Assembly: GCA_031414955.1 (NCBI GenBank)
Contig: JANOQV010000241.1
Span: forward strand, 1-39,431
Origin: Pedosphaera sp.
GTDB lineage: Bacteria; Verrucomicrobiota; Verrucomicrobiia; Limisphaerales; SIBH01
DNA: 39,431 bases
Direction of reading: 5' to 3'
Part shown: piece after piece, positions 4,111 to 38,184 of the stretch
Layout: each line of letters opens with the position of its first letter
Numbering within the stretch: the stretch's first letter is position 1
Made by a program: the position numbers and the translations under genes
Notes under the pieces: model-generated
The model's database searches: none
What the model saw: the letters and a program-made list of their open reading frames with translations, nothing else
Told to the model about the DNA's origin: nothing

Positions 4111-7100
4111 TCAGCGCCTCATCAAGGTTGCATCGTGGTTTAACAACGCTTGTGCGAGCACCGTGCCAGCGGCCAGGTCGATGCGATCCAATCCTTTGGC
4201 GTGGCGGGCCTCGCCTACGGATAGAAGGCTTTCCGCAGCTTTCGGATCCGCGGTGAAAAGCTCGTGCTGTTCTTCGAACAGCTTTTTCAGCACGGTGATT
4301 TCGTTCGGCGTGGGCTTCCGATGCGTGACCATTCTGAACATCCAGGTCGTGCGTTCCTCCAACGAAGTGCCGCCTTCCTGCAACATGCGTTGGCTCAAGC
4401 GGCGTGCCGCCTCCACGATCTGTACGTCGTTGAGCAGAGCCAACGCTTGCAGTGGCGTGCTCGTGTTCTGCCGACGGACGGTGCAGTAGCTCCGATCTGC
4501 AGCGTCGAAGGTCATCATGGCCGGTGGTGGCACGGTCCGCTTCCAATACGTGTAGAGGCTGCGGCGGTGCAGGGCGGTGCCTTTGCCCTGATCGTATTTT
4601 GGTTTGCCCATGGCGATGTCCCACAATCCATCGGGCTGATACGGCTTTACGCTGGGGCCGCCGATCAGTTCCACGAGCAAACCGCTTTCGGCCAGCGCGC
4701 TGTCGCGCAACATCTCCGCCGTGAGCCTCCGGGCCGGGCCGCGGGCCAGGAGTTCGTTGGCCGGATCGCGGGAGACCAGTTCCGAGCTGGCCTTGGAGGA
4801 CTGACGGTAGGTGCTGGAGAGGGCTATGTTCTTGAGCGCGCGTTTCACGTCCCAGCCGTTGCTGGAGAAATCGAGCGCCAGCCAGTCGAGCAGTTCGGGA
4901 TGCGTCGGCTGCGCGCCCTGGCTGCCGAAGTTGTCGCTGGTCTCGACGAGGCCGCGCCCGAACATCATCTGCCACAAACGATTCACGGTCACGCGGGCGG
5001 TGAGCGGATGGTCGGGTTGCAGCAGCCAGCGCGCGAGTCCGAGCCGGTTGGTGGGCTGGCCAGCGGGAAAAGGCGGCAGGGCTGCGGGCGTGCTCGCGAT
5101 GACGGCTTCGCCGTGCGCATCATACGCACCGCGCTTGAGGAGGTAGGCCGGCTTGGGCTGCGGCAGTTCCACCATCGTCATGATTTCAGGAATCGGCTCG
5201 ATGAATTTGCGCAACTCGTCGCGCAGCGCGTGCAACTCTTGAAGCTCCTGCTTCTGGCGCGGACTGAACACGGCTAGAAACCAGTCGAATACTTCCTCAC
5301 GCTCCTTCGCGGTGAGCTTGTCCGCGGGCGTGCTGAGAATGCGGCCGAATTCCTCGCGGCCCGCCACCTGCCGGGCTTCGAGTGCGGTGAGGGTGCGGTC
5401 GAAAATTTTCAGGTCATCCACCTTGCCGTTCTTGAAGCCGTTGTCGCGGAAACGATTGCCCAGCGCGAGTTCCGGTTCACCACCGCCGTAGGTGATGTCC
5501 TTGGCCAGTCCGTCGCGGATGATTTCCAATTCGGCGAGTTCACCGTTGATGAAGAGCTTGGTGCCCGCTGCCTGGCTCGAACCGTCGTAGGTCGTGGTTA
5601 TATGAACCCATTCGTTCGTTGGCAGCGCGTTCCTCGTCGTGACCTTGAGCGAATTGCCCGGCCACATGTGATGCAGGCCGAAAGCGACGCGGCCCTCTTC
5701 GAGCAGCAGTTCAAAGCCGCGGCTGCCGGCGTCCACGGGCGCTTTGCTGTGATGCAGCACCACGAAGCGCGGCGAGTGCGAGGGCGTTTGCAGCCAGAGC
5801 GAAAGGCTGAACGAGTCGGCGCGGTTGAAGTGGCCGAGCTTCCCAAAGGTGAAACCGTTCTCGCCGCTCAGTTCGACGGCCTTTCCGAACTTGCCCTCGA
5901 CAAGTTGTGGTCCTTCAACCGCCTTGGCCGAGTTCGAGCCGACGAGGCTCACGACTTTGTTGGAAACGATCTCGTCGAAACTGAAATGTGCGATCAGTCC
6001 CGGCACGCTCATGTTGGTGTTGCGGCCTGGCTCCGCCAGCCAGCCTGCGAACTCCACTCGTTGTGGTTCGCGCGCCATAGTCAGGTGCTGCTCCTGCGCG
6101 GCGATCTTGCCCCGAAGTTCGAGCACCTTCCGCTCCTGCTCGAAGGTCGGCAGCATCAGTGTCGGCACCGGCATGGAGTCCGTGAAGTAGCTCGTCTGCC
6201 CGGCCTCATCGATGTTCTGAAAGAAAGCGAAGAGCGAGTAGAAATCCTTCTGCGTGATGGGATCGTATTTGTGATCGTGGCAACGGGCGCACTCGGTGGT
6301 CAGACCGAGGAAGGCCGTGCTAAAAGTGTTCACGCGGTCCACCACATACGCCACGCGATATTCCTCCCCGACCACTCCGCCTTCCTCGTTCTGGTTGTGC
6401 AGGCGATTGAACGCGGTGGCCAGGCGCTGATCACGCGTGGCATTGGGCAGGAGATCACCCGCCACCTGCCAGGTGACGAACTGATCGAAGGGCAGGTTCT
6501 GGTTGAAGGCTTTGATCACCCAGTCGCGATAAGGCCACATGGGACGGAAACGATCCATCTGGTAGCCGTGCGTGTCGGCGTAGCGGGCGAGGTCGAGCCA
6601 GTCGGTCGCCATGCGTTCGCCGTAGCGCGGTGAGGCGAGCAGGCGGTTCACTACTTTCTCGTGGGCATTGGTGGAAGCGTCAGCGAGGAAGGCATCCAAC
6701 TCGGGCAGCGTGGGCGGCAGCCCCGTGAGGTCCAAGGTGACGCGGCGCAGCCATGTGTCATTCGAAGCTTCCGATGCCGGCGTCAACCCTTCCTTCTGCA
6801 ACCGCGACAACACAAATGAGTCAATCGGACTTTGGACCTTGGACGCCTGCTCGCGATTTATCGGAGTTGGACCTTGGACTTGCGGCACCACTGGCTGGTG
6901 TGGCGCGACAAACGCCCAATGCTGTCCCCACGGTGCGCCTTCTTCGACCCAGCGCGTGAGTAATTCTATCTGCTTGGGCGTGAGCGTGCGGTTCGAGTCC
7001 GGCGGCGGCATCTGGTCGTCCAGGTTCGTGGTGGTGATGCGCTTCACCAGTTCGCTCTCGAGACTCTGGCCGGGGATGATGATGGCGTCCTTCGTCCGCA

Positions 7101-7293
7101 GCGCGCCTTCCTTGGTATCGAGACGCAGCTTGGCTTTGCGGCCTTTCTCCTCCGGCCCGTGGCAGTGGTAACACTTGTCGGAGAGGATGGGCAGGATGTC
7201 GCGGCCATAATCCACCGAGGCCGCGAGGACTGAACTCACCGCGAAGAAGGCGCAGGCCGGGACGGCTGAAATGTTTTTTATCCAACGGTTCAC
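4111..7293 (-). CDS. Planctomycete cytochrome c + DUF1549 + LamG + DUF1553 (PSD1/PSCyt) protein
   Basis: Signal peptide, CYHCH and CARCH heme motifs, MPP, HWAF, WLDLARYADT, central LamG-like region (WVHITTTYDG...GKVDDLKIFD), PTHPELLDWLA, TPLQALALLND. Confidence 0.92.
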   Translation of the reverse strand: MNRWIKNISAVPACAFFAVSSVLAASVDYGRDILPILSDKCYHCHGPEEKGRKAKLRLDTKEGALRTKDAIIIPGQSLESELVKRITTTNLDDQMPPPDSNRTLTPKQIELLTRWVEEGAPWGQHWAFVAPHQPVVPQVQGPTPINREQASKVQSPIDSFVLSRLQKEGLTPASEASNDTWLRRVTLDLTGLPPTLPELDAFLADASTNAHEKVVNRLLASPRYGERMATDWLDLARYADTHGYQMDRFRPMWPYRDWVIKAFNQNLPFDQFVTWQVAGDLLPNATRDQRLATAFNRLHNQNEEGGVVGEEYRVAYVVDRVNTFSTAFLGLTTECARCHDHKYDPITQKDFYSLFAFFQNIDEAGQTSYFTDSMPVPTLMLPTFEQERKVLELRGKIAAQEQHLTMAREPQRVEFAGWLAEPGRNTNMSVPGLIAHFSFDEIVSNKVVSLVGSNSAKAVEGPQLVEGKFGKAVELSGENGFTFGKLGHFNRADSFSLSLWLQTPSHSPRFVVLHHSKAPVDAGSRGFELLLEEGRVAFGLHHMWPGNSLKVTTRNALPTNEWVHITTTYDGSSQAAGTKLFINGELAELEIIRDGLAKDITYGGGEPELALGNRFRDNGFKNGKVDDLKIFDRTLTALEARQVAGREEFGRILSTPADKLTAKEREEVFDWFLAVFSPRQKQELQELHALRDELRKFIEPIPEIMTMVELPQPKPAYLLKRGAYDAHGEAVIASTPAALPPFPAGQPTNRLGLARWLLQPDHPLTARVTVNRLWQMMFGRGLVETSDNFGSQGAQPTHPELLDWLALDFSSNGWDVKRALKNIALSSTYRQSSKASSELVSRDPANELLARGPARRLTAEMLRDSALAESGLLVELIGGPSVKPYQPDGLWDIAMGKPKYDQGKGTALHRRSLYTYWKRTVPPPAMMTFDAADRSYCTVRRQNTSTPLQALALLNDVQIVEAARRLSQRMLQEGGTSLEERTTWMFRMVTHRKPTPNEITVLKKLFEEQHELFTADPKAAESLLSVGEARHAKGLDRIDLAAGTVLAQALLNHDATLMRR

Positions 7294-7507
7294 GACCGGC
7301 CGAGAATACTTTTATCGCCCGGTGGCGGCAATGGACGAATGACATGGGGGCCGTATTGGGGCGCAGTTGAGCACGGCTTCCGACTCGTGTGCCCGCAGTT
7401 AGCCGCGGAGCGGCGTTGTCCTTGTCATGAAGCTCGTTCAGGTCGCTCAAATCCAGATTGCAAACGAGGCTTGGCGCGCTGTGCGTTTTCAGTCACGTTC
7501 CGTCCGT

Positions 7508-10500
7508 ATGAGAAACTCCTTCACCCTCCGATGGCTCCGCGTTTCGCTCGCCACTATCCTCCTCGCCACCGTCCTCGGTCGCGCCGGCACTACGAATTTC
7601 TTCGAGGGCTTTGAAGGTGTCTTGAATCCGGCTTGGTCCGTCGGGGATGCGAACGCCAGCGGCACGCCCGCCTATTGGGCCATCGTGGACAGCGCCTTCG
7701 GCGGTGAAGGCACGCATGGCGGAGGCGGTAAGATTTATTGCGCCGGTCTCGGCTACGCGGGTTCGACCAGCACGCCCACCTACCGTGACAGCATGAGCGC
7801 CTATCTTCAGCGCAGCATCAACCTCACTGGCTACAGCAACGCCACGCTTTCTTTCTGGTTTAAGCTGCCCGGAGTCGAGAGCGGCTACGATTCGGCCAAC
7901 GTGTATCTCGACAGCACGCTGCTCTGGTCCAGCGACATTGCGGCCACAGGCTGGACGCAGGTGGTGCTGTCTCTGGACGCGTTCGTGGGCGGAACGCACA
8001 CTCTCAAGTTTGAGTTCACCAGCGATACCACGGTCACTGCGGAAGGCTGGTATCTCGATGACATCCTCGTCGTGTCCGGTCCGGGCAACGACGCCTTCGC
8101 CAGCGCCTTCCTCCTCACCGGTGGATTCGGCTCGGTGACCAACAACAATGCCGCCGCAGGCAGCGAGGCGGGCGAGCCGCATCCAGGGAATTCAGTCTGG
8201 TATCGTTGGACGGCCCGGACGAATGGCCTCGTGACCTTCCGCACGGGCGGCAGTTCGTTCGACACCATCCTCTGCGTCTACGCCGGAACCAATTTACTCA
8301 CGTTGGCGAACGTGGCCTGCGACGACAATGGCGGCAGCAACAGCACCAGCCTCGTGAGCTTCAACGCGACCAACGGCGTGACCTACAGCGGCTCGGTGCG
8401 CGGGGCCACGAATGCGGAAGGCGCGGTTGTGCTGAGTTGGGATCAACCGAATGGTCACGGACTCGATCTATTGCCCGACTTGAGCGTCTGGGCCAGCCAG
8501 CCCAACGCTTATCTCTACGGCTGGTATCTCGACAGCAATCAGATTCCAGGGCGCGTGCTGCTGCGCATCTCGACCGCGACCCCGAACAGCGGCACCGGCC
8601 CGCTCGAACTGCACGGCAGTTCCACCACGCCCGGCGTTTCCCAGCGCATTTTCCGCAACGACGGCACCTGGTGGGAACGCTACGCCGGAACCTTCACTTT
8701 CCACGCCGGGCACCAGCATTTGCATTTCGACAACTGGCTCAACTTTCACCTGCGCTCCAATCTGTTGAACGATGCCGTGGGCGACATCATTGTCTCGGGC
8801 GACAAGACCAGCTTCGCCATCATTGACCTCACGCCCTACAACCTCGCGCTGCCCGGCGCGCCCGCGAGCGGCCATTACGGCGGCGGACTGGTGCAGGGAC
8901 TGTCGGTAGGCTGGGCGGATGTCTATGGCGCGAACCTCACCGATCAGTGGATCGATGTGACCGACGTACCGGCGGGCCGCTACTGGTTGGAGGCGATTGT
9001 CGATCCGGAGAACAGCATTCTGGAATCCGACGAGTCGAACAATGCCTCGCGCATTCTCATCGACCTCAATGTGGGCGGCGGGGGCGGCGGCAGCACGAAC
9101 GGGCCGGCTAACAATTTCTTCACCAACGCCTTTGTGCTGGGCGGGGTGATCGCGGCCTGGGCCGACTCGAACACCGGCGCGACGCGCGAGGCGGGCGAAC
9201 CGAACCACGCGGGCAACAGCGGCGGCCCCTCGGTCTGGTTCCGCTGGACCGCGCCCTCGAACATGAACGTGACCCTCACCACGGAAGGCAGCTCGTTCGA
9301 CACGACGCTCGGAGTTTACACGGGTGCGACCGTCGCGAGCCTCGCTGTCGTGGTCAGCAACGACGACGTGGTCTCTGGCACGCTCTGGAGCCGCGTTACG
9401 TTCTCTGCCACGAGCAACGCGACCTATCGCATCGCGGTGGACGGCTACAACGGCACGTCGGGCAGCTACGAGTTGAACCTGAACCCGGCCTGGAACGATC
9501 ATTTCGCCAGCAGCCTCGTGCTGACCGGCGCTTCCGGCACGGTGAGCGCGAGCACCCGTGGGGCGACTCGACAGGCCGGCGAGACGAACCACGCTGGTGT
9601 CTTCGGCAGCAACTCGATCTGGTTCTCCTGGACGGCGGCGCTTTCCGGCGAGGCGATTTTCCAGACCATCGGCAGCGGCTTCGACACCTTGCTGGGCGTT
9701 TACACTGGCGGCAGTGTCGCGGCCCTGACCGTGGTGGCGGCGGACGACAACTCCGCCGGCGGCACCGCAAGCCGCGTGACGTTCAGCGCCGTGGCCGGCT
9801 CGACTTATCGCATCGCCATCGATGGCCCGGCGGGCGCGCGGGGCCTGGCGCGGCTGACCTGGGCCGGCCCGACGCCGCCCACGATTCTGGCCCAACCGCT
9901 CAGCACCAACGTCACGGCGGGATCAGCGGCCACGTTCAGTGTCACCGCCGTCGGGTCCGCGCCGCTGGCCTATCAGTGGCGGCATCAGGGCACGAACCTC
10001 ACGGACAATCTCTATGTCTCCGGCGCTCATTCGCCGCTGCTGGCCTTCAACAAAGTTCAAGCCGCGAACGCGGGCGCTTACACCGTGGTCATCACGAATG
10101 CCTACGGCGCCATCACCAGCGCGCCCGGCAATCTCATTGTGGTGGATAACCCGCGCGTCGTCTTCGTCGAGGAAGCCGCCGGTCACAGCGGCGCCTTCGT
10201 GCGCGTGCCGGTCGAGATCCAGAGCCTCGGCAACGAACACGCGGTGAGCTTCTCACTGACGTTCGATCCCGCCGTGCTTTCCAATCCGCGAGTGACGGAT
10301 GTGCCGGCCGGTGCAGCGCTGGTGCTGAACACCAACCAGGTCGGCACCGGGGCGCTGGGCGTCTTGGTCACGCTGCCGGCGGGCGGGGTGTTTCCGGCTG
10401 GGGATGCGGGGGTGGCGGAGTTTGTCTTCAACACCGCGCCGTCGCCCGTCGCCCTCGACACGTTCGTCGGGTTCCATCTGTCGCCGGTGCCGCGCCTCGT

Positions 10501-10771
10501 CACGGACACGAACGGCGTGACCCTCCCGGCCTTGTTCGTGGCCGGGGTGATTCATCTGGAAGCGCTGCGGCTGGCGAGTGGCGGAGTGAGCAACGGAGTC
10601 TTCCGGTTGAGCTTTGGCGCGGTGAACGGCGAACGGTACGCCATCGATGCCTCGGCGGATTTGATCAACTGGACGCCGCTGGCCACCAACACCGCCGTGG
10701 GAAGCTCGATCCAGTTCCCCGACACCAACGCGCTGCCGCATCGTTTCTATCGCGCGCGTCCGCTGCCCTGA
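7508..10771 (+). CDS. Large secreted protein with lysyl-oxidase domain, three PPC-like beta repeats, Ig and cohesin-like domains, C-terminal FYR module
   Basis: Signal peptide from ATG 7508. LOX motifs LPDL, HAGHQHLH, KTSF, QGLSVGWADVY, QWIDVTDV...ESDESNN. Three repeats with S(V/I)W(Y/F)xWT...GSxFDT. Ig motif PLAYQW...YTVVITN. Confidence 0.88.
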   Translation: MRNSFTLRWLRVSLATILLATVLGRAGTTNFFEGFEGVLNPAWSVGDANASGTPAYWAIVDSAFGGEGTHGGGGKIYCAGLGYAGSTSTPTYRDSMSAYLQRSINLTGYSNATLSFWFKLPGVESGYDSANVYLDSTLLWSSDIAATGWTQVVLSLDAFVGGTHTLKFEFTSDTTVTAEGWYLDDILVVSGPGNDAFASAFLLTGGFGSVTNNNAAAGSEAGEPHPGNSVWYRWTARTNGLVTFRTGGSSFDTILCVYAGTNLLTLANVACDDNGGSNSTSLVSFNATNGVTYSGSVRGATNAEGAVVLSWDQPNGHGLDLLPDLSVWASQPNAYLYGWYLDSNQIPGRVLLRISTATPNSGTGPLELHGSSTTPGVSQRIFRNDGTWWERYAGTFTFHAGHQHLHFDNWLNFHLRSNLLNDAVGDIIVSGDKTSFAIIDLTPYNLALPGAPASGHYGGGLVQGLSVGWADVYGANLTDQWIDVTDVPAGRYWLEAIVDPENSILESDESNNASRILIDLNVGGGGGGSTNGPANNFFTNAFVLGGVIAAWADSNTGATREAGEPNHAGNSGGPSVWFRWTAPSNMNVTLTTEGSSFDTTLGVYTGATVASLAVVVSNDDVVSGTLWSRVTFSATSNATYRIAVDGYNGTSGSYELNLNPAWNDHFASSLVLTGASGTVSASTRGATRQAGETNHAGVFGSNSIWFSWTAALSGEAIFQTIGSGFDTLLGVYTGGSVAALTVVAADDNSAGGTASRVTFSAVAGSTYRIAIDGPAGARGLARLTWAGPTPPTILAQPLSTNVTAGSAATFSVTAVGSAPLAYQWRHQGTNLTDNLYVSGAHSPLLAFNKVQAANAGAYTVVITNAYGAITSAPGNLIVVDNPRVVFVEEAAGHSGAFVRVPVEIQSLGNEHAVSFSLTFDPAVLSNPRVTDVPAGAALVLNTNQVGTGALGVLVTLPAGGVFPAGDAGVAEFVFNTAPSPVALDTFVGFHLSPVPRLVTDTNGVTLPALFVAGVIHLEALRLASGGVSNGVFRLSFGAVNGERYAIDASADLINWTPLATNTAVGSSIQFPDTNALPHRFYRARPLP

Positions 10772-10868
10772 CGGAGCGCGGACCGCCGAGTCCGCGCGAT
10801 CATATCTGGCGATTCTGCGGGCGCATCCCGTTCGTTACGAACACGCGGACTCGGCGGTCCGCGCTCCG
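10772..10868. repeat. GGAG-type REP doublet (REPIN-like), possible bidirectional terminator
   Basis: Perfect 25-bp inverted repeat, 10772-10796 and 10844-10868 (CGGAGCGCGGACCGCCGAGTCCGCG). Each arm is GGAG plus the palindrome CGCGGAC..GTCCGCG. Fills the gap between two convergent stop codons. Confidence 0.88.
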
Positions 10869-10870
10869 CA

Positions 10871-13800
10871 TCAAGGTGCCGCCAGCCGGTAGAAGCGCGT
10901 CCCGTTGGTAGTAGGATCGGTGATGACGATGGTTCGCACCGTCGGTGCGGAAGCCACATTGGTCATTGGCAACCAGGTCAACGCCGTGAGCGTATCCTTG
11001 AACTGCACGGTGAAGGTGCGGTTCGAGGCCGCTGTGAATTCAAACTCCACCCCGCCGCCGGTCGCACTGATGCGCTCCACATGCAGGCGGCTGGCCGGAT
11101 TGTTCGGGTGCGTGCCGGCGAGATACTCCTGCCCGTTCGTGAAGCCGTCACTGTCGTTGTCATCGTTCGCGTCGGGCGTGCCGACCAGCGTGCCGTTGGC
11201 GATTTCCCACGCGTCGGGCAATCCGTCGCCGTCGCTGTCCACGTCGGCGTTCTCGCGGCCCGGCGTCGCGGTCGCGGCCTGCCAGTTGATCGGGTCGTCG
11301 CCATATTGATTTGAAAACTTGCGCTGGAGGGAAGGACCGCTTCCATCCGCCGCCGCCGGCCACGGCGCCTTGTCGTTGTAACGCACCGAGTCCACGACGA
11401 TGTAAGGCGTGCCGTTCGTGTCCGGCGCGTCGGGGCGCGTGAGCGAGAGGCGCTCGCCGCTGCCCTGCAACGAGCCGAGAAAATCGTAGGTGAAGATCGG
11501 CACGTTCACCGGCACCGAGTGGTTCGCGCGAAAGCCAGTGACGTTGCTGATCACGACAAGGACGAGTCCGCCGGGCGGCACGGTGAGGTTCGTCGGAAAA
11601 GTGAAGCCCACGCCTTCGAGCTTCCAGGTATTCGCCGGGAACGCCGCGTGGAACAGCGGCACGTTGGTCGCGCTGATGTTCTTCAATTCCACGAACGCAT
11701 CTTGTGGCATCACGGGATGGTAGTGAATCTCGTTGATGACGAGCGGCCCGACGCGCGGGCCGGAGTTGGTGGCGTTGAAAGTCGGGGAGATTTGCGCCGG
11801 GAACTGTTCCTCGCCCACGCTGTTGAGGTGGCGGCCAAAGGTCACGCCGTTCGCCGCCGCGCTGAAGCTGAAGCCGTGCGACCAGCCGGTGAGATTCGTG
11901 TTCGCATCACCGGAGAAAAGATAGACGAACTCGCCGCTGGAACTGAGTGAGAAGCTGTCGTTCGTGCCGGGAGTGGCGTTGAACTGCGTTTCGTCGAAAG
12001 TCAGGAAGCCGCCCGCGGTGATCGTCATGCCGTTGGGGATGCGATACTTCTTCAGCCGGCCGGATTCGTCCGTCAGGAACCAGCCGCCCACATCCACATT
12101 GGTCGCGGCGAGGTTGTGGATTTCAATGCGGTCCACCGCCGGCAGATCGGTGTGCGTGAGCACTTCGTTGACGACGACGGGGGCGATGAACGGCGCGGGA
12201 TCGTCCGCGCCGGGCGAACCGCCGCTGAACGTGCTGGCCCGCCACTTCGCGCCGTCGTCCGGGGCCTGGAACGTGCCGGGGAGCAATGGGACGAGCGAAA
12301 AGCCATGACCGTCCGGCGTCACCGGCCACGGCGCAGTGGTGCCGTAGGTGAGCGAAAGAATGGTCGGGCCGTAGGGCGGGCCGCCCGCCGCCTGCTGCGA
12401 GAGCGTGATCGTCTCCCCGTCGTTGGCGAGCTGTCCGGTGAAGAAGCCGTCCGCCGTCACGCCGGGATACTTCGCGTTGAACGGAATCCCGCTGCGCGCG
12501 AGGACGAAGAACTGGCCCGGCCCGAGCAGCGTGCCGTTGGTGAAGTTGAACGTGAAGCCGTCGGTGAACCCGCAGCCGGTCAGATCGAGAGCGTTCGTGC
12601 CGTAGTTTTTCAACTCGAGGAACTCCAGATCGCTGCTGCCAAAAGGCGCGAGCGCAGGCGGGCGGTACATGATTTCCGTCAAGGCCAGCTTCGAAAAATC
12701 CTGCGGTGGAAAGAACGTGGCCTCGGCCAGCGCGCTCCAGTTGCCGCCGCCAAGCACGCGCGAACGCACGAGCGTTGGCGCGTTGATCGGCACCGGCGTT
12801 GCGAACGCCTGCGCGCCCGCCGCGACCGCGCCGCTGCCATACACGCGCGGGTCGCTGCCGTCGGTGGTGAAGTAAATCGTCCCGCCGACATTCGTGTGCG
12901 TGATGGTGAGGGAGAAGCCTGCCGTTACGCTGCCGCCGAACTGGCTGAACACGGGAGCGCCGACGAGCGGATACAAATTGCCGGCTTGGAAGCGGGCCAC
13001 GTTGTCCGCCGTGAGCTTCTGGAAAAAGTTCGTCAGCGTTTTGTCGAGTTCCGGCCGCCACCATTCGTTGCGCGTGAAAGTATTGCTCGTGCCGATCTGC
13101 CCGGCGGGCACGCCGATCTTGCGCGCGTCACCCCAGCGCGCGGACTCGCCCACGAGGGCGTTGGTCAGTCCCGTGGACGCGGCGAGCAGGCGCGCGGCGT
13201 TCGCGGCCGGCGTGAGCGCGCCGCCGTTGAAGAGATGCTTATGAACGCGGTCGGCGAAGCGCAGGCGGAATTCCGGCCAGTTGCGGCACTGGAAGTAAAG
13301 ACGCGCGGGGCTGTATTGCTCGCCTGCGCCGCCGCCGTTGTTGCCCGCGTCAATGCGGTTGCGACGCACCAGCCGGTCGAGCACCAGCTCTTGATCCCAC
13401 ACGGCGAAGATAAATTTTGTGCCCGCCACGCCGTTCGTCGCGCGGCGGTGCGCGCCGTACCAGTTGTGTCGCGGCCAGTCCTCGGACTCAGCGACGATGT
13501 GGAGCATCATGTAGTCAATGAGGTTGTCCACATCCACGGCGTTGGTGATCGCGGCGTAGGCGGACTCGCTGGCGATGGGCGACGCGGCGAGCGCGAGCAC
13601 GGCGTTCCAGTCCGTGAGCGAGCCGTCCACGAGCACGGTCGGGCCGTTGTTGTCCTCGCCCACCACCACATCCCACGCGCCCTCGTCGCCGCCGAGATGC
13701 TGGCTGAAGTAATACGCGCCGTAGCGTTCCGAAGGGAAGTAGAGGCCCCAATACAAACCGTTGAGATAAAGATGCGCGAACGCGCTGCGGCTCGAAATCC

Positions 13801-16312
13801 AGCCCATGTCGCGGAAAGATCCCTTCACCCACACGTCGCGCAGGTAGAGCGTGTTCTCGGGACGATAGCGCAAGCCACGGAACTGCTCGCCGGTCTCGCT
13901 GCTGGTATAAATTGTGTTGTCCGCATAGCGACCAGCCCAGCCGTCCACGAAGCCCGCCGAGCGCAGGATGATCGCGTCGTGCGTTTTCACGCCGCCGCCG
14001 AACCAGTCGTAGTCGAGCTTGGTCGGGCCGTAGTCGCTGTTGAAGTTGAGCCGCATGGAATGCTTCGGCGTGCGGGCGTTGTCGCGGCTGGCGTTGCCGT
14101 GCATTTCCATCTTCGCCGTCGTGGCAAACTCGGTGCCGCCGTCGCCCGCGATCAATTCCGCCGAGGCTGCGCGTTCCCACGCCGCGCCGCTGCTGGTCGC
14201 GTTCGGGTAAATGCCGGTCGAGGAATTCCACAGGCCATCCTGGCCCGACACGAGCATCAGGCTCGGAATGCTCCGCAGATCGTTGCTGATGGTCGCGCCA
14301 TAGACGACGTGGTTCACGATGTTTGAGTCCATCGCGTAGTCGGCGGTGTAGGCGGCCTGCCAGAGCGTCGGGTAGCCGGGGATGTTGTTCGACTGACGCA
14401 GCACATCGGTCATGAAAATGTAGCTGTGCGTGTCCACGCCGCTCGGCACCCAGCCCGCCAGATACGCGGCGGCACGGATGAAACTGTTTCCCGTGATGCT
14501 GATGGGCGCGGTGTGCAGGAAGCCGTTGGTCGGCGCGGGCGCGCTGCCGTTCGTCGTGTAATAAATGCTGGCGCCGGCCGTGGCGCAGGTGATGGAGAGC
14601 GAGAAGGGCGCGTCGAAGAAGCCGCGGTCCACACTGAACTTGGTGTCGGCCACCACGCCGTAAAGCGCGGCACTGTTCGACGTGCCGGGCGTCACGGGTG
14701 CGAAGAAGCCGTTGGTGATCGGCTGCAAGCTGGCGATGAGCTGCGGCTCGATAAAAAAGTCCGAGTCACCCGCGGCGATGTTCAACGCCTGCACCGCGAG
14801 AATGTTGGTGCCACCGACCAGCAGTCCGGGAGCCGCGGGCAAAATGATGTCCTCGGCCACGGCGGACGAGTTGGTGGCGGTGGCGGCGGAGTCCCACGCG
14901 GGTGTAAGCGGGGCGTTGCGACGCGCGACCTCGGTGCCGTTGAGGTAGGCGATGAAGCCGTCATTGTACTTCACGCGCAAGGTGACCTGCGCCACCAGAG
15001 CGGGAGTGGAGACAATGAACGACTGCCGCGCGTAGAGCGTGGAGTTTAGGCCGGCTAGTGCAGTGGCGTTGCCGTTCGTGGCCGGCAGCAGGACGGCGGG
15101 CGTGACCTGAATCGCATTCAGGAAAACCCCGAAGGAAGCGATGGGTGTCGGGGCGGAGGCGTCCACGCTGGCCGGGTTGCGCCGGCCGCGAACCACCACG
15201 AGACCGTCCGCGTCCGACGTGGCGTCGAAGGTGAAGTTGTACTGGGCGTCGCTGGTCGGAAGCACCGTGCCGTTGAAGGCGTAGCCGTTGGTGGCCACCA
15301 CGCCATTGGCCGACCAGTCGGAGACACGGTTGCCTCCGCTGCCGCTGTCGTACGACCAGACAGTCAGGCGATGGAGCGCATTCGAGGCCAGGCCCGCCAG
15401 TGTGATGTCCAGTCCGCCGGTGGTGTTCAAATCCTGGGAGAAGACGAAATCGCGCAGCAACGGCGCGTTGGTGCCCCCGGCCGAATCCACCGGCGTGCCG
15501 CGCAGCCGATCATTGTAACCGAAGGGCAGGGTGTTCGACAGCGTGACGGAATAAGCGCCGTACGTTCGCACCGTCGCCTGAGTTTGCACGGCGGTGACAC
15601 TGACATTGGAGTTGATGACGAAAGGCTGAAAGCCCGCCAGCGTGTTGGTGGGGAAGTTGGAATTGCGCCGGTTGAAATCCACGCTCAGGAGCGCCGCCCC
15701 GGCCGGCGCGCTGAACAGGCCCACGTCGTAGCGCAGGGGCATGAGAGCGCTGCTCCAGGAAGAGTCATCGAATCCGGGCGCAGTCCAGGTCGCGCCGGGC
15801 GCGTCGCTCACTGGCACGAGCCAGCGCGTCGCGCCACCAGCGGCGAGGAGCGTGACCACGGCGCCGTTCGTGGTGCCGGGGCCGTAACTGACGTTGCGGT
15901 GTTGCTGCGGGTAATTGAACTCGCTGGCGATGACGCTGTTCGAGTCCACGAGGGCCAGATAGCCGCCGCCGTTCTGCAACTGGAAGTTGGCGTGCAACTG
16001 CGCGCCGTTGGTCGCGCGATCCTTGCCCGAGGCGAAGACGATCAGGTAGCCGCCGGCGGACAGATTGGTGGCGGGAAAAGCCCACTTGGCCAGGTTGGTC
16101 GGATTGTCCGTGAGCCGCCAGCCCTCAAGGCTGACCGCCAGCACGCTGGTGTTGCGCAGTTCGATCCAGTCCGGCGTGTCGCCGTCCTGATCGATCAGCC
16201 CGCCGTCGTTCTCGGCCAGGAATTCAGAAATGATGATGGTGGCGGCCCGGCTGCTTTGACCGAAGGCGAAAAGAGACAGGCATAGGGCGAGAATGTGACA
16301 GCTTTGGCGCAT
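10871..16312 (-). CDS. Secreted CotH-kinase / lamin-tail-domain protein with Fn3-associated and TSP3-like repeats
   Basis: Signal peptide from ATG 16312. Four LTD-like starts (ISEF..DWIEL, TEIMY..EFLEL, NEVL..RIEI, NEIHY..FVEL). CotH motifs HGNASR, KHSMRL, LYLNGLYWGLY, DWPRHNW, WDQE. DSDGDGLPDAWE repeat. C-terminal RFYRL. Confidence 0.9.
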   Translation of the reverse strand: MRQSCHILALCLSLFAFGQSSRAATIIISEFLAENDGGLIDQDGDTPDWIELRNTSVLAVSLEGWRLTDNPTNLAKWAFPATNLSAGGYLIVFASGKDRATNGAQLHANFQLQNGGGYLALVDSNSVIASEFNYPQQHRNVSYGPGTTNGAVVTLLAAGGATRWLVPVSDAPGATWTAPGFDDSSWSSALMPLRYDVGLFSAPAGAALLSVDFNRRNSNFPTNTLAGFQPFVINSNVSVTAVQTQATVRTYGAYSVTLSNTLPFGYNDRLRGTPVDSAGGTNAPLLRDFVFSQDLNTTGGLDITLAGLASNALHRLTVWSYDSGSGGNRVSDWSANGVVATNGYAFNGTVLPTSDAQYNFTFDATSDADGLVVVRGRRNPASVDASAPTPIASFGVFLNAIQVTPAVLLPATNGNATALAGLNSTLYARQSFIVSTPALVAQVTLRVKYNDGFIAYLNGTEVARRNAPLTPAWDSAATATNSSAVAEDIILPAAPGLLVGGTNILAVQALNIAAGDSDFFIEPQLIASLQPITNGFFAPVTPGTSNSAALYGVVADTKFSVDRGFFDAPFSLSITCATAGASIYYTTNGSAPAPTNGFLHTAPISITGNSFIRAAAYLAGWVPSGVDTHSYIFMTDVLRQSNNIPGYPTLWQAAYTADYAMDSNIVNHVVYGATISNDLRSIPSLMLVSGQDGLWNSSTGIYPNATSSGAAWERAASAELIAGDGGTEFATTAKMEMHGNASRDNARTPKHSMRLNFNSDYGPTKLDYDWFGGGVKTHDAIILRSAGFVDGWAGRYADNTIYTSSETGEQFRGLRYRPENTLYLRDVWVKGSFRDMGWISSRSAFAHLYLNGLYWGLYFPSERYGAYYFSQHLGGDEGAWDVVVGEDNNGPTVLVDGSLTDWNAVLALAASPIASESAYAAITNAVDVDNLIDYMMLHIVAESEDWPRHNWYGAHRRATNGVAGTKFIFAVWDQELVLDRLVRRNRIDAGNNGGGAGEQYSPARLYFQCRNWPEFRLRFADRVHKHLFNGGALTPAANAARLLAASTGLTNALVGESARWGDARKIGVPAGQIGTSNTFTRNEWWRPELDKTLTNFFQKLTADNVARFQAGNLYPLVGAPVFSQFGGSVTAGFSLTITHTNVGGTIYFTTDGSDPRVYGSGAVAAGAQAFATPVPINAPTLVRSRVLGGGNWSALAEATFFPPQDFSKLALTEIMYRPPALAPFGSSDLEFLELKNYGTNALDLTGCGFTDGFTFNFTNGTLLGPGQFFVLARSGIPFNAKYPGVTADGFFTGQLANDGETITLSQQAAGGPPYGPTILSLTYGTTAPWPVTPDGHGFSLVPLLPGTFQAPDDGAKWRASTFSGGSPGADDPAPFIAPVVVNEVLTHTDLPAVDRIEIHNLAATNVDVGGWFLTDESGRLKKYRIPNGMTITAGGFLTFDETQFNATPGTNDSFSLSSSGEFVYLFSGDANTNLTGWSHGFSFSAAANGVTFGRHLNSVGEEQFPAQISPTFNATNSGPRVGPLVINEIHYHPVMPQDAFVELKNISATNVPLFHAAFPANTWKLEGVGFTFPTNLTVPPGGLVLVVISNVTGFRANHSVPVNVPIFTYDFLGSLQGSGERLSLTRPDAPDTNGTPYIVVDSVRYNDKAPWPAAADGSGPSLQRKFSNQYGDDPINWQAATATPGRENADVDSDGDGLPDAWEIANGTLVGTPDANDDNDSDGFTNGQEYLAGTHPNNPASRLHVERISATGGGVEFEFTAASNRTFTVQFKDTLTALTWLPMTNVASAPTVRTIVITDPTTNGTRFYRLAAP

Positions 16313-16405
16313 AAATATTTGGGATGGCCGAAAGCTACTACACCGGCAGGCGTTCTTACAACACAACGCTACGGGCAACAGGCTGAAGGTGTCTGCCCGG
16401 ATTCG

Positions 16406-17845
16406 CTAGGCGACGATGCCCTTCACCAAATCACCGGCGATGCCTGTCAGCCGTGCGTCGAGCCCCTGGAACTTCACCGTCAGCCGCTTGTGATCGATGC
16501 CGAGCAGGCGGAGCATCGTGGCGTGCAGGTCGTGGACGCTCACCACGTCTTCGACGGAGCGGTAGCCCAGCTCGTCGGTGTTGCCGAACATCGTGCCGGC
16601 CTTCACGCCGCCGCCGGCCAGGAAGACGGAGAAGGCGAGAATGTGATGGTCGCGCCCGCTGCCCTGGCTCATGGGCGTCCGCCCAAACTCGCCGCCCCAC
16701 AGGATGAGCGTGTCGTCGAGCAGGCCGCGCTGCTTCAAGTCCTTGATGAGCGCGGCGCTCGCCTGATCCGTGGCCTTCGCGGCCTTGGGCATTTCCTTCT
16801 CGATGTCGCCGTGATGATCCCACGCGCGGTGATAAAGCTGAATCATCCGCACGCCGCGCTCGGCGAGTCGGCGGGCCATGAGGCAGTTCGAGGCGAAGCT
16901 GCCGTCGCCCGGCTCCTTCACGCCGTACATTTCCAGCATCTCCTTCGGCTCGTTCTTGAAGTCCGTCAGTTCCGGCACGGAACTTTGCATGCGGAACGCG
17001 AGTTCGTACTGCGCGATGCGCGTCTGGATTTCCGGGTCGATGTGGTCCTCGGCCAGAATGCCGTTGAGGCGGTTGATTTCCTCGACGACCTGACGCTGCG
17101 TGCTCTGGCAGACGCCTTCGGGATTGCCGATGTAATGCACCGCGTCGCCCTTCGACTGAAATTGAATCCCTTGAAATTTGCTCGGCAGAATCCCGCTCGA
17201 CCATTGCCGCGCCGACACCGGCTGTGCGCCCGAACTGCCCTGCGACGTGAACACGACGAAGCCCGGCAGGTTGTCCGTCTCCGCGCCGAGTCCGTAGAGC
17301 AGCCACGAACCCATGCTGGGCCGGCCCTTGATGATCGAGCCGGTGTTCATGAAGGCGTGCGCCGGGTCGTGGTTGATCTGCTCCGTCTGCATCGACTTGA
17401 TCACGCACAGTTCGTCCGCCACTTCCTGCAAGTGCGGGAACAGGTTCGAGATCGAGATGCCCGACTTGCCGCACGGCTTGAATTCCGTGAACGCGCCGCG
17501 CGCCTTCAACTCTGTGTTCTGCAACTGCGCGAGCTGTTGTCCTTTGGTGAACGATTCGGGAAACGCCTTGCCATCAAGCTTCTTCAACTCCGGCTTCCAG
17601 TCGAACGTCTCCAGATGCGAAGGCCCGCCCGCCATGCAGAGGTGGATGACGCGCTTGGCCTTGGGCGCGAAGTGCAACGGGTTCAACACGCCGCGCCATT
17701 TGCCGGGAGCGGCTGGCTCGGCGGCGAAAATTCTTGGGTCCATCAGGCCGGCCAGCGCGAGTCCGCCGAGACCGTAGGCGGAGCGGCGCAGGAAGGTGCG
17801 GCGGTTGACGGAGAGGGCGAACTTTTGCAGGTCGAAGGGTTTCAT
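16406..17845 (-). CDS. DUF1501 protein (alkaline-phosphatase/sulfatase superfamily), Tat-exported
   Basis: NRRTFL Tat motif, KAKRVIHLCMAGGPSHLETFDWKP, WDHH, GEFGRTP, GRDH, HDLHAT. Start at ATG 17845; the upstream extension is translated repeat DNA. Confidence 0.93.
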   Translation of the reverse strand: MKPFDLQKFALSVNRRTFLRRSAYGLGGLALAGLMDPRIFAAEPAAPGKWRGVLNPLHFAPKAKRVIHLCMAGGPSHLETFDWKPELKKLDGKAFPESFTKGQQLAQLQNTELKARGAFTEFKPCGKSGISISNLFPHLQEVADELCVIKSMQTEQINHDPAHAFMNTGSIIKGRPSMGSWLLYGLGAETDNLPGFVVFTSQGSSGAQPVSARQWSSGILPSKFQGIQFQSKGDAVHYIGNPEGVCQSTQRQVVEEINRLNGILAEDHIDPEIQTRIAQYELAFRMQSSVPELTDFKNEPKEMLEMYGVKEPGDGSFASNCLMARRLAERGVRMIQLYHRAWDHHGDIEKEMPKAAKATDQASAALIKDLKQRGLLDDTLILWGGEFGRTPMSQGSGRDHHILAFSVFLAGGGVKAGTMFGNTDELGYRSVEDVVSVHDLHATMLRLLGIDHKRLTVKFQGLDARLTGIAGDLVKGIVA

Positions 17846-17867
17846 GGTGAGGAGGGCGGAGGGGGAA

Positions 17868-17922
17868 AAGATCCAAGAACCAAGCACCAAGCTCCAGAGA
17901 AACACCAAGCACCAAGATCCAA
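17868..17922 (+). repeat. 55-bp heptamer module A (inverted relative to B and C)
   Basis: AAGATCC AAGAACC AAGCACC AAGCTCC AGAGAAACACC AAGCACC AAGATCC AA. Confidence 0.9.
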
Positions 17923-17957
17923 CCAGCGTCCGGAGACGCTCGCACGTCCGCCGCATA

Positions 17958-18012: not shown

Positions 18013-18025
18013 CATTCTTGGTTCT

Positions 18026-18532: not shown

Positions 18533-18534
18533 CT

Positions 18535-21702
<3,168 letters not shown>

Positions 21703-30016: not shown

Positions 30017-33000
30017 TTACTTGTTGGTCGCGAGCAGTTGCTGGAAGTCGGCGTTGCCCTTGAGCGAGGCGAACCGGAGGTCGCCGGCGATGGTCGGGGC
30101 GATGTTGGGCTGCGAGGCGTTGGTCTTGAGGCGCGCCTTGTTCAGGCTCAACGCTTCGCGCAGGGTGGAGATGGCTTCCTTCTGTTTGTTCTGCACGGCC
30201 TGCGCGGCGGCGTAGTCAAGCCAGGCTTCGGGGGTGGGCTTGATGGTGGTCCAGCGGGCCAGCGCCTTCTCCAGCTTCGGAAAATCCGTCAACTGCTGGT
30301 AGATTTGCGCGGCCAGGCTGATCATCTGCTCGTCCGATTTTGGGTTGGCGATGATTTCGTCGGCCAGGCGGAGGACATCTCCTGTACGACCAGTCGAGGC
30401 GTAGAACTGCGCAAGGGCGAAGGCGTCCTGGAAGTTGCCTGGGTTCTTTTTGTAGGCGGCTTCGAGTTTTGCGCCGTTGGGGTCGGCGGCGGGCGGCGGG
30501 GTGGCGGCACCGGCACCGGGTCCGCCTTTGAGGCGTTTGAGTTCCACGATGAGATTCACCAAGCCGGCGTTGTTCGGATCCACTTTCACGGAGGTCTCCG
30601 CCAGCAGGATGGCGTCGTCGAAGCGGCGCGCGCCGGCCAGGACTTGCACGTAGCGGTAGAGCGCCTCGGGGCTGTAGGGGCAGAAGGCGAAGGCCTGCTT
30701 GAAGGCGAAGTCGGCTTCCTTGAAGACGCGACGGTAGGATTCGAGGATGCGCTTCTGGTCCACCGTCAGCGAATTAGTGGGCATCTGCTCAAATTGCATC
30801 GCGCCCTGCTCGGCCAGCTTGGTCAGACGCCAGGCATAGACGCCGGCGATGGAGCTGCGCAGCTTGGAGAAGGCTTTCTGGCCGTCGTCATCGCGGACGA
30901 AGCGCGGGTCGCCGGTGAAGCCGCGGAAATCCTTGTTCACATACACGCGCTCGGCGAACTGGGTGATGTTCGAGATGGGCGTGTCGTAGGTGATCCAGTT
31001 GCCGATGAGGCGCTCGGAATAATCGCTCCAGAAGTTGTGATCCTTGTCCAGGATGTCCTGGGTCAACTCGGCCAGGGGCTGGCGGTTGATCTTCATGATG
31101 ACGCCGAAGGGCGTGAGGTGCGGATACATCCACTCGAGTGGAAAACTTTCCTCGACGTAGAATTCGTTGGTCGGGTTTTTCTCGAAGATGACCTTGGCCA
31201 ACAGGGCGTTGATGGCCATGACCGCGACCTGACCGGAGACCTGGACCTTGTTGTCCACCACGCGCACGTCTTCGCCGGGTCGGAGCGCGCCCTTGGCCAT
31301 GCGGGCCTGGGCGTCGGCCATGTATTCGGAAAAGCAGCGCTGCGAATCCTCGTTGGAAGGCGTGTTGATTTCCACTGGCGGATAGACTCCGCGGGCACGG
31401 CGTTCCTTCTCGATGCGGGCACCGTTGTTCATAAAGAAACTATCCAGCGGCACCGCGACCATTTTGGCCAGGAGGTTGGTCTTGAAGTTCAACTCGCGCT
31501 CCTTCTGGCTGCGGAACAACTCGCCGAAGAACGGAATGTCCGGCTCGGTGCTGCGGTTGTAATGCGCGCGGATGTATTGCAGGTAGGTGCCGTCGGCCAG
31601 CGCGTTCTGGGTGATGATGTAAACGTCGCGGCGATCGAACTCGGGATCGCGGCGGTCCTTGGGCGCGATGAAGCTCTCGCAGAAAATCATGTAGGTCGGG
31701 CAGAAGCGGCCGGGGTCAGTGCCGCCGAAGAGGATCGTGTCGCGCGCCATCTCGGGATAGATCTTGGCCTTGCCCTCGGGCGTCTTCATCAGCTCTTCAC
31801 GCTCGGCGCGGGCATACTTGAGCGTGCCGTCTTTGCCCTTGTAGGGCGGGGTGAACATGTCGTGGCCGAAGTAGAAGCCAAACAAGTGGCCGCGCTGTTC
31901 GTTTTCCGACCAGTGGGCCGCGATGGTCCAGACGGGCATGAGAAAGGCCAGCCCCAGCAGCACGGCCAGTGGCGCTTTCTGCCGGGCGGCGAGCACCGCC
32001 AAAGCCCCGAGCAAGGCCAGTCCGAAACCCCAGACGGAGGCGAAACGCAGAATCCAATACGGCGTTTCGCCGTAGGTCTTGAGCACGCCGAAGACCAGCG
32101 ATCCCGTCGCCAGCACGCTGAAGCTGATCAGCGCGTAGCGCCGGTACTTCTGATACTGCGTCACCAGTGTGGCCAGCGTGAGGGTCAGGCCGTATCCGAT
32201 GGCGAGGGTGATGATGAAGTGCGAGGCGATGAAGAATGGTTTGTTCAACGACACGCTTTGCCGGTCCGGCGCGGGGTTGAACAGTTCGAGCAGGAACGGT
32301 CCCAGCACGAGGTAGAAGGCCAGCAACCCGATCAGCCAGGCGCGCTCGCGCGGTTGCAGTTTGCGGAAGAAGAGCAGCGGCACCAGACCCAGCAGCAAAT
32401 AGCCCAGGCTGAATTCCTCCATCGGGCCTTCCACGAGGAACGACTTGCACTGCTGCGCGTAGCGGGTCACCCAGGACACGGTTTGCTCGACGATGTTGTT
32501 GCCCGTGCCCGCCGTGGGATGAATGCGCTCGTACTGGCCGCGGGTGAAGGCGTGGACGAAGCCGTTCACGGTGCGGGGATAACCCCAGTTCAACGGCGGG
32601 TTCGTCATCGAGGCCAGCGGCATGTAGAGGTAGAAGGCCGCGCCGATGATGAAAAAGACTCCCGTGCCCAGCGCCTTGCGCCAGTGCGGCATCCAGGGCA
32701 GGGGCTGCTTGTTGAACCAGAAATAAAGATCCAGCGCCGTGTAAACCGCCACCACCACGCCGACCCCGACCATCATGCCGGACATGCCCTTGAACCAGAG
32801 AAAGCCGATGGCGACTTTGGCTAGGATAACATCACGAACCAAATCCGCGCCGTTGGCCCGGGTGCGGATGGAGAGCCAGATCCAGCCGAGAATCGAGCCG
32901 ATGCCGACCAGCGTGTAAACGACCATGACGGGCGTGTTGCCGCTGAGCAGCGAGAGTTCGCCTTTGCCCTTGAGGATGAGGCCCATGATGTAAGCCACCC

Positions 33001-36752: not shown

Positions 36753-37838
36753 ATGAAACTCACGCCTCTCGTTCTCTTCGTGTTTGGCAATTTGCTCCAG
36801 GCTGCCGCGCAGCATCCGTTGGCTGTCCAGCGTCAACTTGCTGTGCAGCATCAACTCTCCGTGTCCACAAACCTTCACTACTTTCTCGTCTCCAATGCCA
36901 CGGCCATCACCGAGGTGCAAATGCGCGCCTACACGAACACCATCCCAGGCACGAACGTCACCTATGGCATGACGCTAGTTCGCGGCGGTGAATTCCTCAT
37001 CGGCAGTCCGGCGAGCGAAGCCGGGCGCAAGCCGGATGAAGGCCCGCAACGCCGCGTGCGCATCGAGCCTTTCTGGATGGGAACTTGCGAAGTGACCTGG
37101 GACGAGTACGAGGCGTTTCTGTATCGCGCCCGGCGGTACGCCAGTTACGTCACCGTGGATCGGAATCCTTTCACCAACACGCTCGCCGACGCGGTGGCCA
37201 TGCCTTCCATGCCCTACGTGGAATTGAGCATGGGCATGGGCCGGGAAGGGTATCCCGCCATCAACATGACGCAGCACGCGGCTAACAAATACTGCCAGTG
37301 GCTCAGCGCTTTGACCGGCGAGTATTACCGCCTGCCCACCGAAGCTGAGTGGGAATACGCCTGCCGCGCTGGCACGACCAACCGCTATTCCTTCGGCGAT
37401 GACGAGAAGCAGCTTTTTGAATACGCCTGGTATGAGCGCAACAGCGATTTCAAATACCAGAAGGTCGGACGCAAGAAGCCAAACCCTTGGGGCCTCTACG
37501 ACATGCACGGCAACGTCGCCGAGTGGACGCTCGACGGCTACGACCCTGGCGCCTACGCCACGGTGACGGATGGTATGCTCGGGCCGTTCGTGCGGGGCAC
37601 CAAGCCCTATCCCCATTCCGTGCGCGGCGGTTCGTGGAACGACGGGGCGGCATTGCTCCGCAGCGCCTCCCGCCAGTTCTCCGTTCCCAAGTGGAAGGAG
37701 CGCGATCCGAGCCTGCCCAAGAGCGCCTGGCACATGGTCGAGGCGGATTTCGTCGGCTTCCGCCTCGTGCGCCCGCTGCGCCTCCCGTCGGCGGAGGAAA
37801 TGCACCGCGCGTGGAACAATGGCGTGGAGTTGGAGTAG
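36753..37838 (+). CDS. FGE-sulfatase (SUMF1/EgtB/PvdO-fold) protein, secreted
   Basis: GGEFLIGS, DEGPQ, EVT..EY, YRLPTEAEWEYACRAG, PNPWGLYDMHGNVAEW, RGGSW, VGFR. Confidence 0.92.
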   Translation: MKLTPLVLFVFGNLLQAAAQHPLAVQRQLAVQHQLSVSTNLHYFLVSNATAITEVQMRAYTNTIPGTNVTYGMTLVRGGEFLIGSPASEAGRKPDEGPQRRVRIEPFWMGTCEVTWDEYEAFLYRARRYASYVTVDRNPFTNTLADAVAMPSMPYVELSMGMGREGYPAINMTQHAANKYCQWLSALTGEYYRLPTEAEWEYACRAGTTNRYSFGDDEKQLFEYAWYERNSDFKYQKVGRKKPNPWGLYDMHGNVAEWTLDGYDPGAYATVTDGMLGPFVRGTKPYPHSVRGGSWNDGAALLRSASRQFSVPKWKERDPSLPKSAWHMVEADFVGFRLVRPLRLPSAEEMHRAWNNGVELE

Positions 37839-38129: not shown

Positions 38130-38184
38130 CTCGCTTTTCATTTTCAACTCGACTGGCCCAGCACCGCGCGGATACCTCCACTCC

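Follow-up and report, generated by a model that had tools for sequence, protein, structure and literature searches.

The O-glycosylation motif of the Bacteroidota acts on exported proteins only and is enriched mainly in that phylum (PMC8550257, PMC12871550). A 2025 review presents it as the only known motif-directed exception, with a transferase still undiscovered (PMC12871550). The mycobacterial GT-C enzyme PMT is described as sitting with the Sec translocon, where it acts on Ser/Thr of emerging chains (bioRxiv 10.64898/2026.09.29.755281), and TMEM260 and TMTC are described as protein O-mannosyltransferases that combine a GT-C enzyme with TPR (PMC10214176). For human TMEM260 a sequon, Px6Px3Px2GGx3T, is given within IPT domains (bioRxiv 10.64898/2026.09.21.753134). 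Here we analyse a stretch of 39,431 nucleotides from Pedosphaera sp., a soil-type bacterium of the phylum Verrucomicrobiota (contig JANOQV010000241.1 of assembly GCA_031414955.1, positions 1 to 39,431; hereafter the window), together with the genome from which it comes, and describe an excess of the dipeptide Thr-Asn (TN) over the reverse dipeptide Asn-Thr (NT) in exported proteins. The 39.4-kb window has a G+C content of 62%, and its source assembly comprises 6.5 Mb in 313 contigs and is 95.9% complete.

In this genome (G000; other G codes denote comparison genomes), 4315 genes were called with a codon-usage model trained on the genome itself; they cover 87% of the DNA and match the Pfam-supported genes of the window. 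Expected TN was computed for each protein from its own composition and is given throughout as the ratio of observed to expected (O/E). TN is the most over-represented of the 400 dipeptides, with 9684 observed and 5187.5 expected across the 4315 genes (O/E 1.87), and TN/NT is the most asymmetric dipeptide pair (ratio 2.13), NT itself being slightly low (O/E 0.88). We regard it as close to certain that the excess is real and genome-wide and that it is present in related genomes as well. Composition or low complexity is ruled out as the source, as the earlier note on this DNA had argued from the asymmetry, since per-protein expectations leave NT at an O/E of 0.87–0.88 and TN far above chance. The same note had called Ser-Asn (SN) frequent as well and had proposed (T/S)-N as an acceptor motif. 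The two large window proteins described below, LOX and CotH, are slightly rich in SN (12 and 13 copies), but the O/E of SN is only 1.03 genome-wide and 1.00 in signal-peptide proteins; the motif is therefore T-N alone, and the S-N half of the proposal falls away. Measured against E. coli and ten other verrucomicrobial families, the shift in TN has a z of 17.2 and the next dipeptide one of 6.7; in the contrast between exported and cytoplasmic proteins inside the genome, TN reaches z=17.9 and the next dipeptide, DG, 11.6, with nothing comparable among gapped pairs. TN is carried by 792 of 1112 signal-peptide proteins (~71%), at a density of ~0.7 sites per 100 residues, and 15.7% of the Asn residues in these proteins are preceded by Thr.

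We note separately that DG ranks second among the dipeptides in export specificity (O/E 1.41 exported, 1.08 cytoplasmic; z=11.6) and is also raised relative to other lineages, which possibly reflects calcium-binding or turn motifs of extracellular domains.

The excess arises at the level of the protein rather than the DNA. Codon pairs of ACC, ACG or ACA with AAC or AAT are all raised 1.6–2.7 fold, mainly in frame 0 of the sense strand, and TN-type and NT-type hexamers are about equally common in 858 kb of intergenic DNA. A DNA-level motif or mutational bias is thus ruled out by the frame specificity, the codon independence and the lack of an intergenic signal, and selection must act on the protein. 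ACT-AAY and AAT-ACN are depleted, for which avoidance of T|A junctions presumably accounts.

The comparison of signal-peptide with cytoplasmic proteins that the earlier note had proposed places the excess specifically in the exported fraction. With proteins sorted by a crude heuristic based on signal peptides and hydrophobic segments (Tat and topology classes, used below, being likewise crude), TN O/E is 2.04 in the signal-peptide class, 2.06 in the membrane class and 1.31 in the nominally cytoplasmic class as a whole; among paralogue-free proteins the contrast is 2.10 for signal-peptide versus 1.05 for cytoplasmic proteins (n=1189). Signal-peptide proteins show 1.85–2.10 in each quartile of β-content (2.06 in the α-rich quartile), and the three lower β-content quartiles of the cytoplasmic class show 0.99–1.15. 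The remaining excess in the latter class is confined to its β-rich, many-paralogue fraction, which includes clearly mis-sorted giant extracellular proteins. Conserved cytoplasmic proteins (n=117) and response regulators (n=60) have values of 0.97 and 0.87, respectively. The cleanest compartment control is the comparison of inside and outside within the same polypeptide: in 101 single-pass membrane proteins, with orientation predicted by the positive-inside rule, the outside parts contain 366 TN and 129 NT (O/E 2.16), and the cytoplasmic parts 22 of each (O/E 0.69).

The excess appears, in addition, to be restricted to substrates of the Sec pathway. The DUF1501 family, of which 39 of 42 paralogues carry the canonical RR motif, has a TN O/E of 0.69, whereas its genomic partner, the PSD1/DUF1553 family (43 paralogues with Sec-type signals), has one of 2.16; other proteins with the strict Tat motif [ST]RRxF[LIVM] (n=27) lie at 1.04. 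This contrast fits a process acting on unfolded Sec substrates.

Both kinds of protein occur in the window, which contains the following features (positions in the window, strand in brackets; assignments from Pfam where stated).

4111..7293 (−): PSCyt1/PSCyt2/LamG/PSD1 (DUF1549/DUF1553) protein, Sec-type (Pfam); TN 5, NT 3
7427..10771 (+): exported lysyl-oxidase-domain (LOX) protein with MAM-like, LOX and Ig domains and a C-terminal domain ending RFYR (Pfam)
10871..16378 (−): exported giant LTD/CotH protein of 1835 residues (Pfam), with 4 lamin-tail domains (LTD), CHB_HEX_C, a CotH kinase-like domain, TSP3 repeats and an RFYR-ending C-terminal domain
16406..17956 (−): DUF1501 protein, member of the twin-arginine (Tat) exported family (Pfam), used as a contrast because it is exported in folded form; TN 0, NT 3
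18535..21702 (−): PSCyt1/PSCyt2/PSD1 (DUF1553) protein, Sec-type (Pfam); TN 11, NT 2
20227..20367 (−): ~45-residue insertion in the DUF1553 protein (residues ~446–492), from TN positions and alignment
23402–24550 (−): MoeB, cytoplasmic control; TN 1, NT 1
24633–25556 (+): PNP, cytoplasmic control; TN 2, NT 0
25543–25959 (+): Cdd, cytoplasmic control; TN 0, NT 0
25993–27501 (+): histidine kinase/response regulator (hybrid kinase), cytoplasmic control
30017..33745 (−): TMEM260-like (DUF2723) GT-C glycosyltransferase with a C-terminal TPR domain and 14 predicted membrane segments (Pfam)
35027–35866 (+): small exported protein; TN 3, NT 2
35963–36631 (+): small exported protein; TN 2, NT 1
36753..37838 (+): exported FGE-sulfatase-fold protein; TN 5, NT 2
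38005–38868 (+): IS200-like Y1 transposase near the window end (Pfam)

A P-type ATPase gene is also present in the window (Pfam). The program-made list of open reading frames (ORFs) includes a long one at 16295–18115 (+) that is spurious; the actual gene here is DUF1501 on the minus strand. The Tat-type DUF1501 gene and the Sec-type PSCyt/PSD1 gene form a pair at 16406–21702 (−).

The hand counts of the earlier note proved exact on the ORF translations, with 16 TN and 4 NT in the LOX protein and 30 TN and 9 NT in the CotH protein; composition predicts 6.7 and 10.5 TN, numbers as high as those observed being reached in 11 of 20000 within-protein shuffles for LOX and in 0 of 20000 for CotH. The recurrence of TN that had been noticed in the FGE-fold protein, the two DUF1553 proteins and the small exported proteins at 35027 and 35963, as well as its rarity in MoeB, PNP and Cdd, is borne out by the counts listed above. 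Pooled, the nine exported-type proteins of the window hold 72 TN and 27 NT, each against 27.0 expected, and the cytoplasmic controls plus the Y1 transposase hold 5 TN and 2 NT against 2.6 expected.

The LOX (10382–10771, +) and CotH/LTD (10871–11260, −) proteins share a C-terminal domain of ~80–100 residues that closes with RFYR[LVA]xxP and goes unrecognised by Pfam. At least 109 of the 4315 proteins terminate in this domain, most of them giant and exported, and it may act as a signal for sorting or anchoring.

The excess is restricted to one clade: it is shared by the genus, by the family and by most of the families that make up the order, within which its distribution is patchy, whereas it is weak or absent in ten other families of the phylum and absent in E. 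coli. The samples taken from other genomes are of limited size and not independent phylogenetically, and the records of the relatives bear the titles Pedosphaera sp., Verrucomicrobiales or Verrucomicrobiota (metagenome-assembled genomes, MAGs). With this scope, O/E in the signal-peptide, membrane and cytoplasmic classes is 1.86, 1.34 and 1.11 for six congeneric genomes and 2.08, 2.38 and 1.11 for same-order loci. It is 1.12, 0.91 and 0.85 for the pool of ten genomes from other families of the phylum (~80 kb each, G027 60 kb), and 0.86, 0.66 and 0.74 for E. coli K-12 (450 kb). Within the order, where samples of 5–19 thousand residues make single-genome values rough, exported O/E reaches 3.16 in G045, 2.54 in G042 and G043 together, 2.21 in G047 and 1.83 in G053, and is ~1.6 in G048, G054 and G049, in the last of which NT is equally raised; the order members lacking the bias are G051 (1.23), G052 (1.08) and G044 (0.90). 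One Pedosphaera sp. MAG locus contains 45 TN against 23.7 expected.

Homologous domains, which the earlier note had singled out for comparison, follow the same pattern. For the window DUF1553 protein, 33 orthologues at 65–77% identity have a TN O/E of 3.2 and 86 more distant homologues one of 1.13–1.18, and for the CotH/LTD protein a set of 150 representative homologues has a median of 1.03, with 24 of the 150 at 2 or above. Thus, most DUF1553 and CotH/LTD homologues from other lineages show no TN excess, which is therefore no property of the domains themselves. T/N-rich E. coli proteins have an O/E of 0.99. The literature search returned no prior account of a TN bias or of protein glycosylation in Verrucomicrobiota, most subscription journals lying outside it.

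The flanks of TN were scored against T-not-N and not-T-N controls. P, G and S are enriched before T, P and M are disfavoured after N (~0.5; P 0.51), and at N+2 there is a preference for V (1.46), T (1.43), P (1.39) and F (1.34) and a strong exclusion of K, R, D and E (0.30–0.51). Ser is neutral at N+2 (0.98), so that TN is no N-x-S/T sequon; this canonical sequon is ruled out together with its enzyme, the STT3 profile (PF02516) having 0 matches in this genome and 4 archaea matched by the same profile. The motif is strict for T, not S, and for N, not D or Q.

In an AlphaFold2 (AF2) model of residues 1–1200 of the CotH/LTD protein, with a predicted local distance difference test score (pLDDT) of 88.3, the N of TN lies in a loop, strand or helix in 11, 4 and 3 of 18 cases, and all N do so in 54, 13 and 12 of 79; TN sites in this model are spread over secondary structure like Asn and Thr generally. 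In orthologues from unbiased relatives, the TN columns hold varied loop-type residues. In orthologues at 30–55% identity, 32% of TN sites are conserved and the density is kept. Since sites turn over at a maintained density, TN behaves as a linear motif of which the density, not the position, is preserved. No decisive sign of site-level purifying selection was seen, TN conservation being 0.32 versus 0.24–0.33 for comparable dipeptides, and periodicity is limited to a mild excess at spacings of 6–8 and 11–13 residues. The insertion of the DUF1553 protein contains 7 TN at ~6-residue spacing, which are conserved in clade orthologues with variable residues between them; the insertion is missing from more distant homologues. 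Because pLDDT is below 50 here (residues 446–487), the AF2 model is uninformative on the fold of the insertion, which may be either a disordered linker or a fold invisible to AF2.

A linear motif specific to one compartment and one lineage is what the acceptor of a general glycosylation system would be expected to look like. From the combination of a single dipeptide, a protein-level signal, Sec export, a clade limit and independence of fold, we tentatively favour a clade-specific extracytoplasmic modification as the source of the excess, most likely O-glycosylation of Thr. On this view, positive selection would favour TN as a short linear motif in proteins that pass the inner membrane via Sec in an unfolded state; this selection would be confined to one order-level clade of Verrucomicrobiota, and TN would serve as the acceptor or recognition site of the modification. 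We infer that the modification exists, that it is a glycan and that Thr would be the residue that bears it, the following Asn acting as specificity determinant; a membrane enzyme using a lipid-linked sugar would carry it out at or just after Sec translocation. In function, such a process would parallel both the general O-glycosylation of Bacteroidota and the Sec-coupled O-mannosylation of mycobacteria. More guardedly still, we suggest that this may be a second bacterial motif-directed general glycosylation, in which a Sec-associated membrane glycosyltransferase would O-glycosylate T-N on most exported proteins and thereby double TN.

Several observations weigh against this reading, the support for which consists entirely of sequence statistics. 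A two-fold proteome-wide enrichment exceeds, to our knowledge, that of any known acceptor motif. The hydrophobic, uncharged flanks of TN are untypical of exposed glycosites. Binned by identity to order-level relatives, exported proteins have a TN O/E of 2.55, 1.78 and 1.09 at 25–45%, 45–60% and ≥60%, and cytoplasmic proteins 1.33, 0.99 and 0.87 in the same bins, which hold 10–48 proteins each (two of the cytoplasmic ones, n=10 and 18, being small samples). The excess thus fades to 1.09 in highly conserved exported proteins, 36 sulfatases likewise containing 73 TN versus 58 NT, and evolutionary freedom therefore counts besides export. The contrast between Sec and Tat substrates is confounded by the extreme conservation of the DUF1501 proteins (75–96% identity among the top 120 matches). 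Finally, no candidate writer follows the TN bias cleanly, as the distributions in the next two paragraphs illustrate.

The genome encodes two TMEM260-like GT-C genes with TPR and four PMT_2 matches. The second TMEM260-like gene (G000:C14:50536-53622; L128/L133) matches the bias better than the window DUF2723 gene, being present in 15 of 16 genomes searched within the order and in 0 of 6 outside it, an overlap that shared ancestry alone could explain; however, it also occurs, as an operon, in the unbiased G044 and G052. In at least 9 families of the order, the gene lies in a conserved operon of tRNA-U5 methyltransferase, GT-C, GT1 (PF00534) and WecA-like phosphoglycosyl transferase (PF00953) genes. 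In the genus of this genome only the methyltransferase and GT-C genes are still adjacent, and tblastn at E<1e-30 gave no match to the GT1 and WecA-like partners in this genome. Two congeneric copies carry in-frame stops, 2 TGA in one (G037:C164, L146) and 3 TGA plus 1 TAA in the other (G038:C21, L145), and still align over 1047–1051 residues at 51–53% identity (tblastn); the stops may reflect pseudogenes, errors of assembly or read-through. Three further candidates were rejected as writers: a DUF6541/TPR protein present in only 1 of 22 genomes, a PAP2-PMT_2 fusion of patchy distribution, and the CotH kinases, which are missing from three biased genomes. The genome shows a massive expansion of the CotH kinase-like domain (PF08757), with 52 matches, and three congeners have 35–44; three further genomes of the order and six outside it have none.

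The earlier note had offered the window DUF2723 protein (30017–33745) as a candidate writer on the grounds of co-occurrence. It matches Pfam PF11028 (TMEM260-like GT-C; E 9.6e-29), and its combination of a GT-C enzyme with a TPR domain resembles that described for the O-mannosyltransferases TMEM260 and TMTC (PMC10214176). The relatives search, which covered 25 genomes with G000 among them, recovered orthologues in 23, and among 14 named control genomes the family was matched only in Bacteroides thetaiotaomicron, from the phylum with motif-directed O-glycosylation. Nevertheless, we consider it very unlikely that this enzyme writes (T/S)-N glycosylation, given that SN is not enriched and that the proposed co-occurrence fails in six unbiased genomes. 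Full-length orthologues or homologues occur in G044, G052 and G051 within the order (exported O/E 0.90, 1.08 and 1.23) and outside it in G023, G005 and G017 (whole-sample O/E 0.58, 0.84 and 0.86). Pfam identifies no glycosylation genes flanking the gene in the window, and the sequon described for human TMEM260 in the preprint cited above is unrelated to TN.

Explanations other than glycosylation are, in our estimation, less likely than the modification favoured above. TN could instead serve folding or quality control outside the cytoplasm, either because a periplasmic chaperone, isomerase or protease-protection system peculiar to the clade recognises it in unfolded Sec substrates or because it aids folding by itself; this would yield the same specificity, with Sec substrates affected and Tat and cytoplasmic proteins spared. 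The hydrophobic, uncharged flanks and the exclusion of charges at N+2 indeed resemble a chaperone-binding segment, but TN sites share no common structural position and strict specificity for T and N is unusual for chaperone motifs; we know of no chaperone-type factor that recognises TN and rate this explanation as unlikely. Somewhat more doubtful is a non-adaptive or weakly selected substitution bias towards TN throughout the clade that becomes visible under low constraint, exported proteins evolving fastest. Such a bias would be consistent with the scaling of the exported excess with divergence (from 1.09 through 1.78 to 2.55), with cytoplasmic values here (1.05–1.18) slightly above those of other lineages (0.74–0.85) and with the modest shift of both classes in conserved orthologue comparisons. 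It is hard to reconcile with the missing DNA-level signal and with the restriction to one of 400 dipeptides. At matched divergence, moreover, cytoplasmic proteins stay at ~1.0–1.3 (n=10, 18) versus 1.8–2.6 for exported ones, the 1189 cytoplasmic singletons and the fast-evolving response regulators remain at 1.05 and 0.87, and there is a three-fold difference between the inside and outside segments of single polypeptides. Least probable of all, and already largely refuted, is that TN marks conserved structural positions of expanded β-rich domain families (Ig-like, LamG, LTD and the RFYR C-terminal domain). The 183 proteins of at least 1200 residues do hold 4245 of the 9684 TN, the CHB_HEX_C consensus 'YTTDGS' reads 'YTTNGS' here, and the TNs of the DUF1553 insertion are conserved. 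Yet the excess is undiminished in paralogue-free signal-peptide proteins (2.10) and in their α-rich quartile (2.06), flanking preferences are weak (≤1.7-fold), and TN occurs in loops, strands and helices in the proportions usual for T and N. Homologues with the same domains elsewhere have a median of 1.03, and T/N-rich proteins of E. coli 0.99.

A single dipeptide that is enriched two-fold, chiefly among Sec-exported proteins and chiefly within one clade, gives a clean signal that is simple to compute. It points to an extracytoplasmic process with a reach across most of the exported proteome. If this process is glycosylation, as we tentatively suggest, it would rank as just the second case of motif-directed O-glycosylation known from bacteria, and glycosites would become predictable from sequence in abundant soil and freshwater Verrucomicrobiota that are rich in uncultured members. 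Comparing the TN index of exported proteins with gene content offers a comparative-genomics route to the transferase, and dipeptide scans of exported versus cytoplasmic proteins can expose hidden modification systems.

With PglB/STT3 ([D/E]-x-N-x-S/T), the TN bias shares a short Asn-containing motif in exported proteins and a disfavoured proline after Asn (0.51), but the defining residue is located at −1 rather than +2 and no STT3 homologue is present. Sec-coupled O-mannosylation by PMT (mycobacteria and other Actinobacteria; eukaryotic PMT, TMTC and TMEM260) is brought to mind by the presence of TMEM260-like genes with TPR and PMT_2 genes, and by an excess seen in Sec (2.16) but not Tat (0.69, 1.04) substrates, although the high conservation of the Tat proteins confounds the latter contrast. 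This contrasts with the lack of a dipeptide sequon in PMT-type enzymes and, here, of an enzyme that co-varies with the bias. The O-glycosylation of Bacteroidota differs in that its glycans are proven, those at TN being putative, and in its motif: D-[S/T]-[A/I/L/V/M/T] there, and here T-N, which is limited to Thr and has its determinant following, not preceding, the hydroxy residue. Indeed, D-[ST]-[AILVMT] is not enriched in this genome (O/E 0.82 exported, 0.94 cytoplasmic). Like that system, however, TN is a very short linear motif that is found in many unrelated proteins, is followed preferentially by small or hydrophobic residues, and is confined to exported proteins (by heuristic classes) and enriched in one clade, which amounts to an analogous footprint left by a different motif (compare the descriptions in PMC12871550 and PMC8550257).

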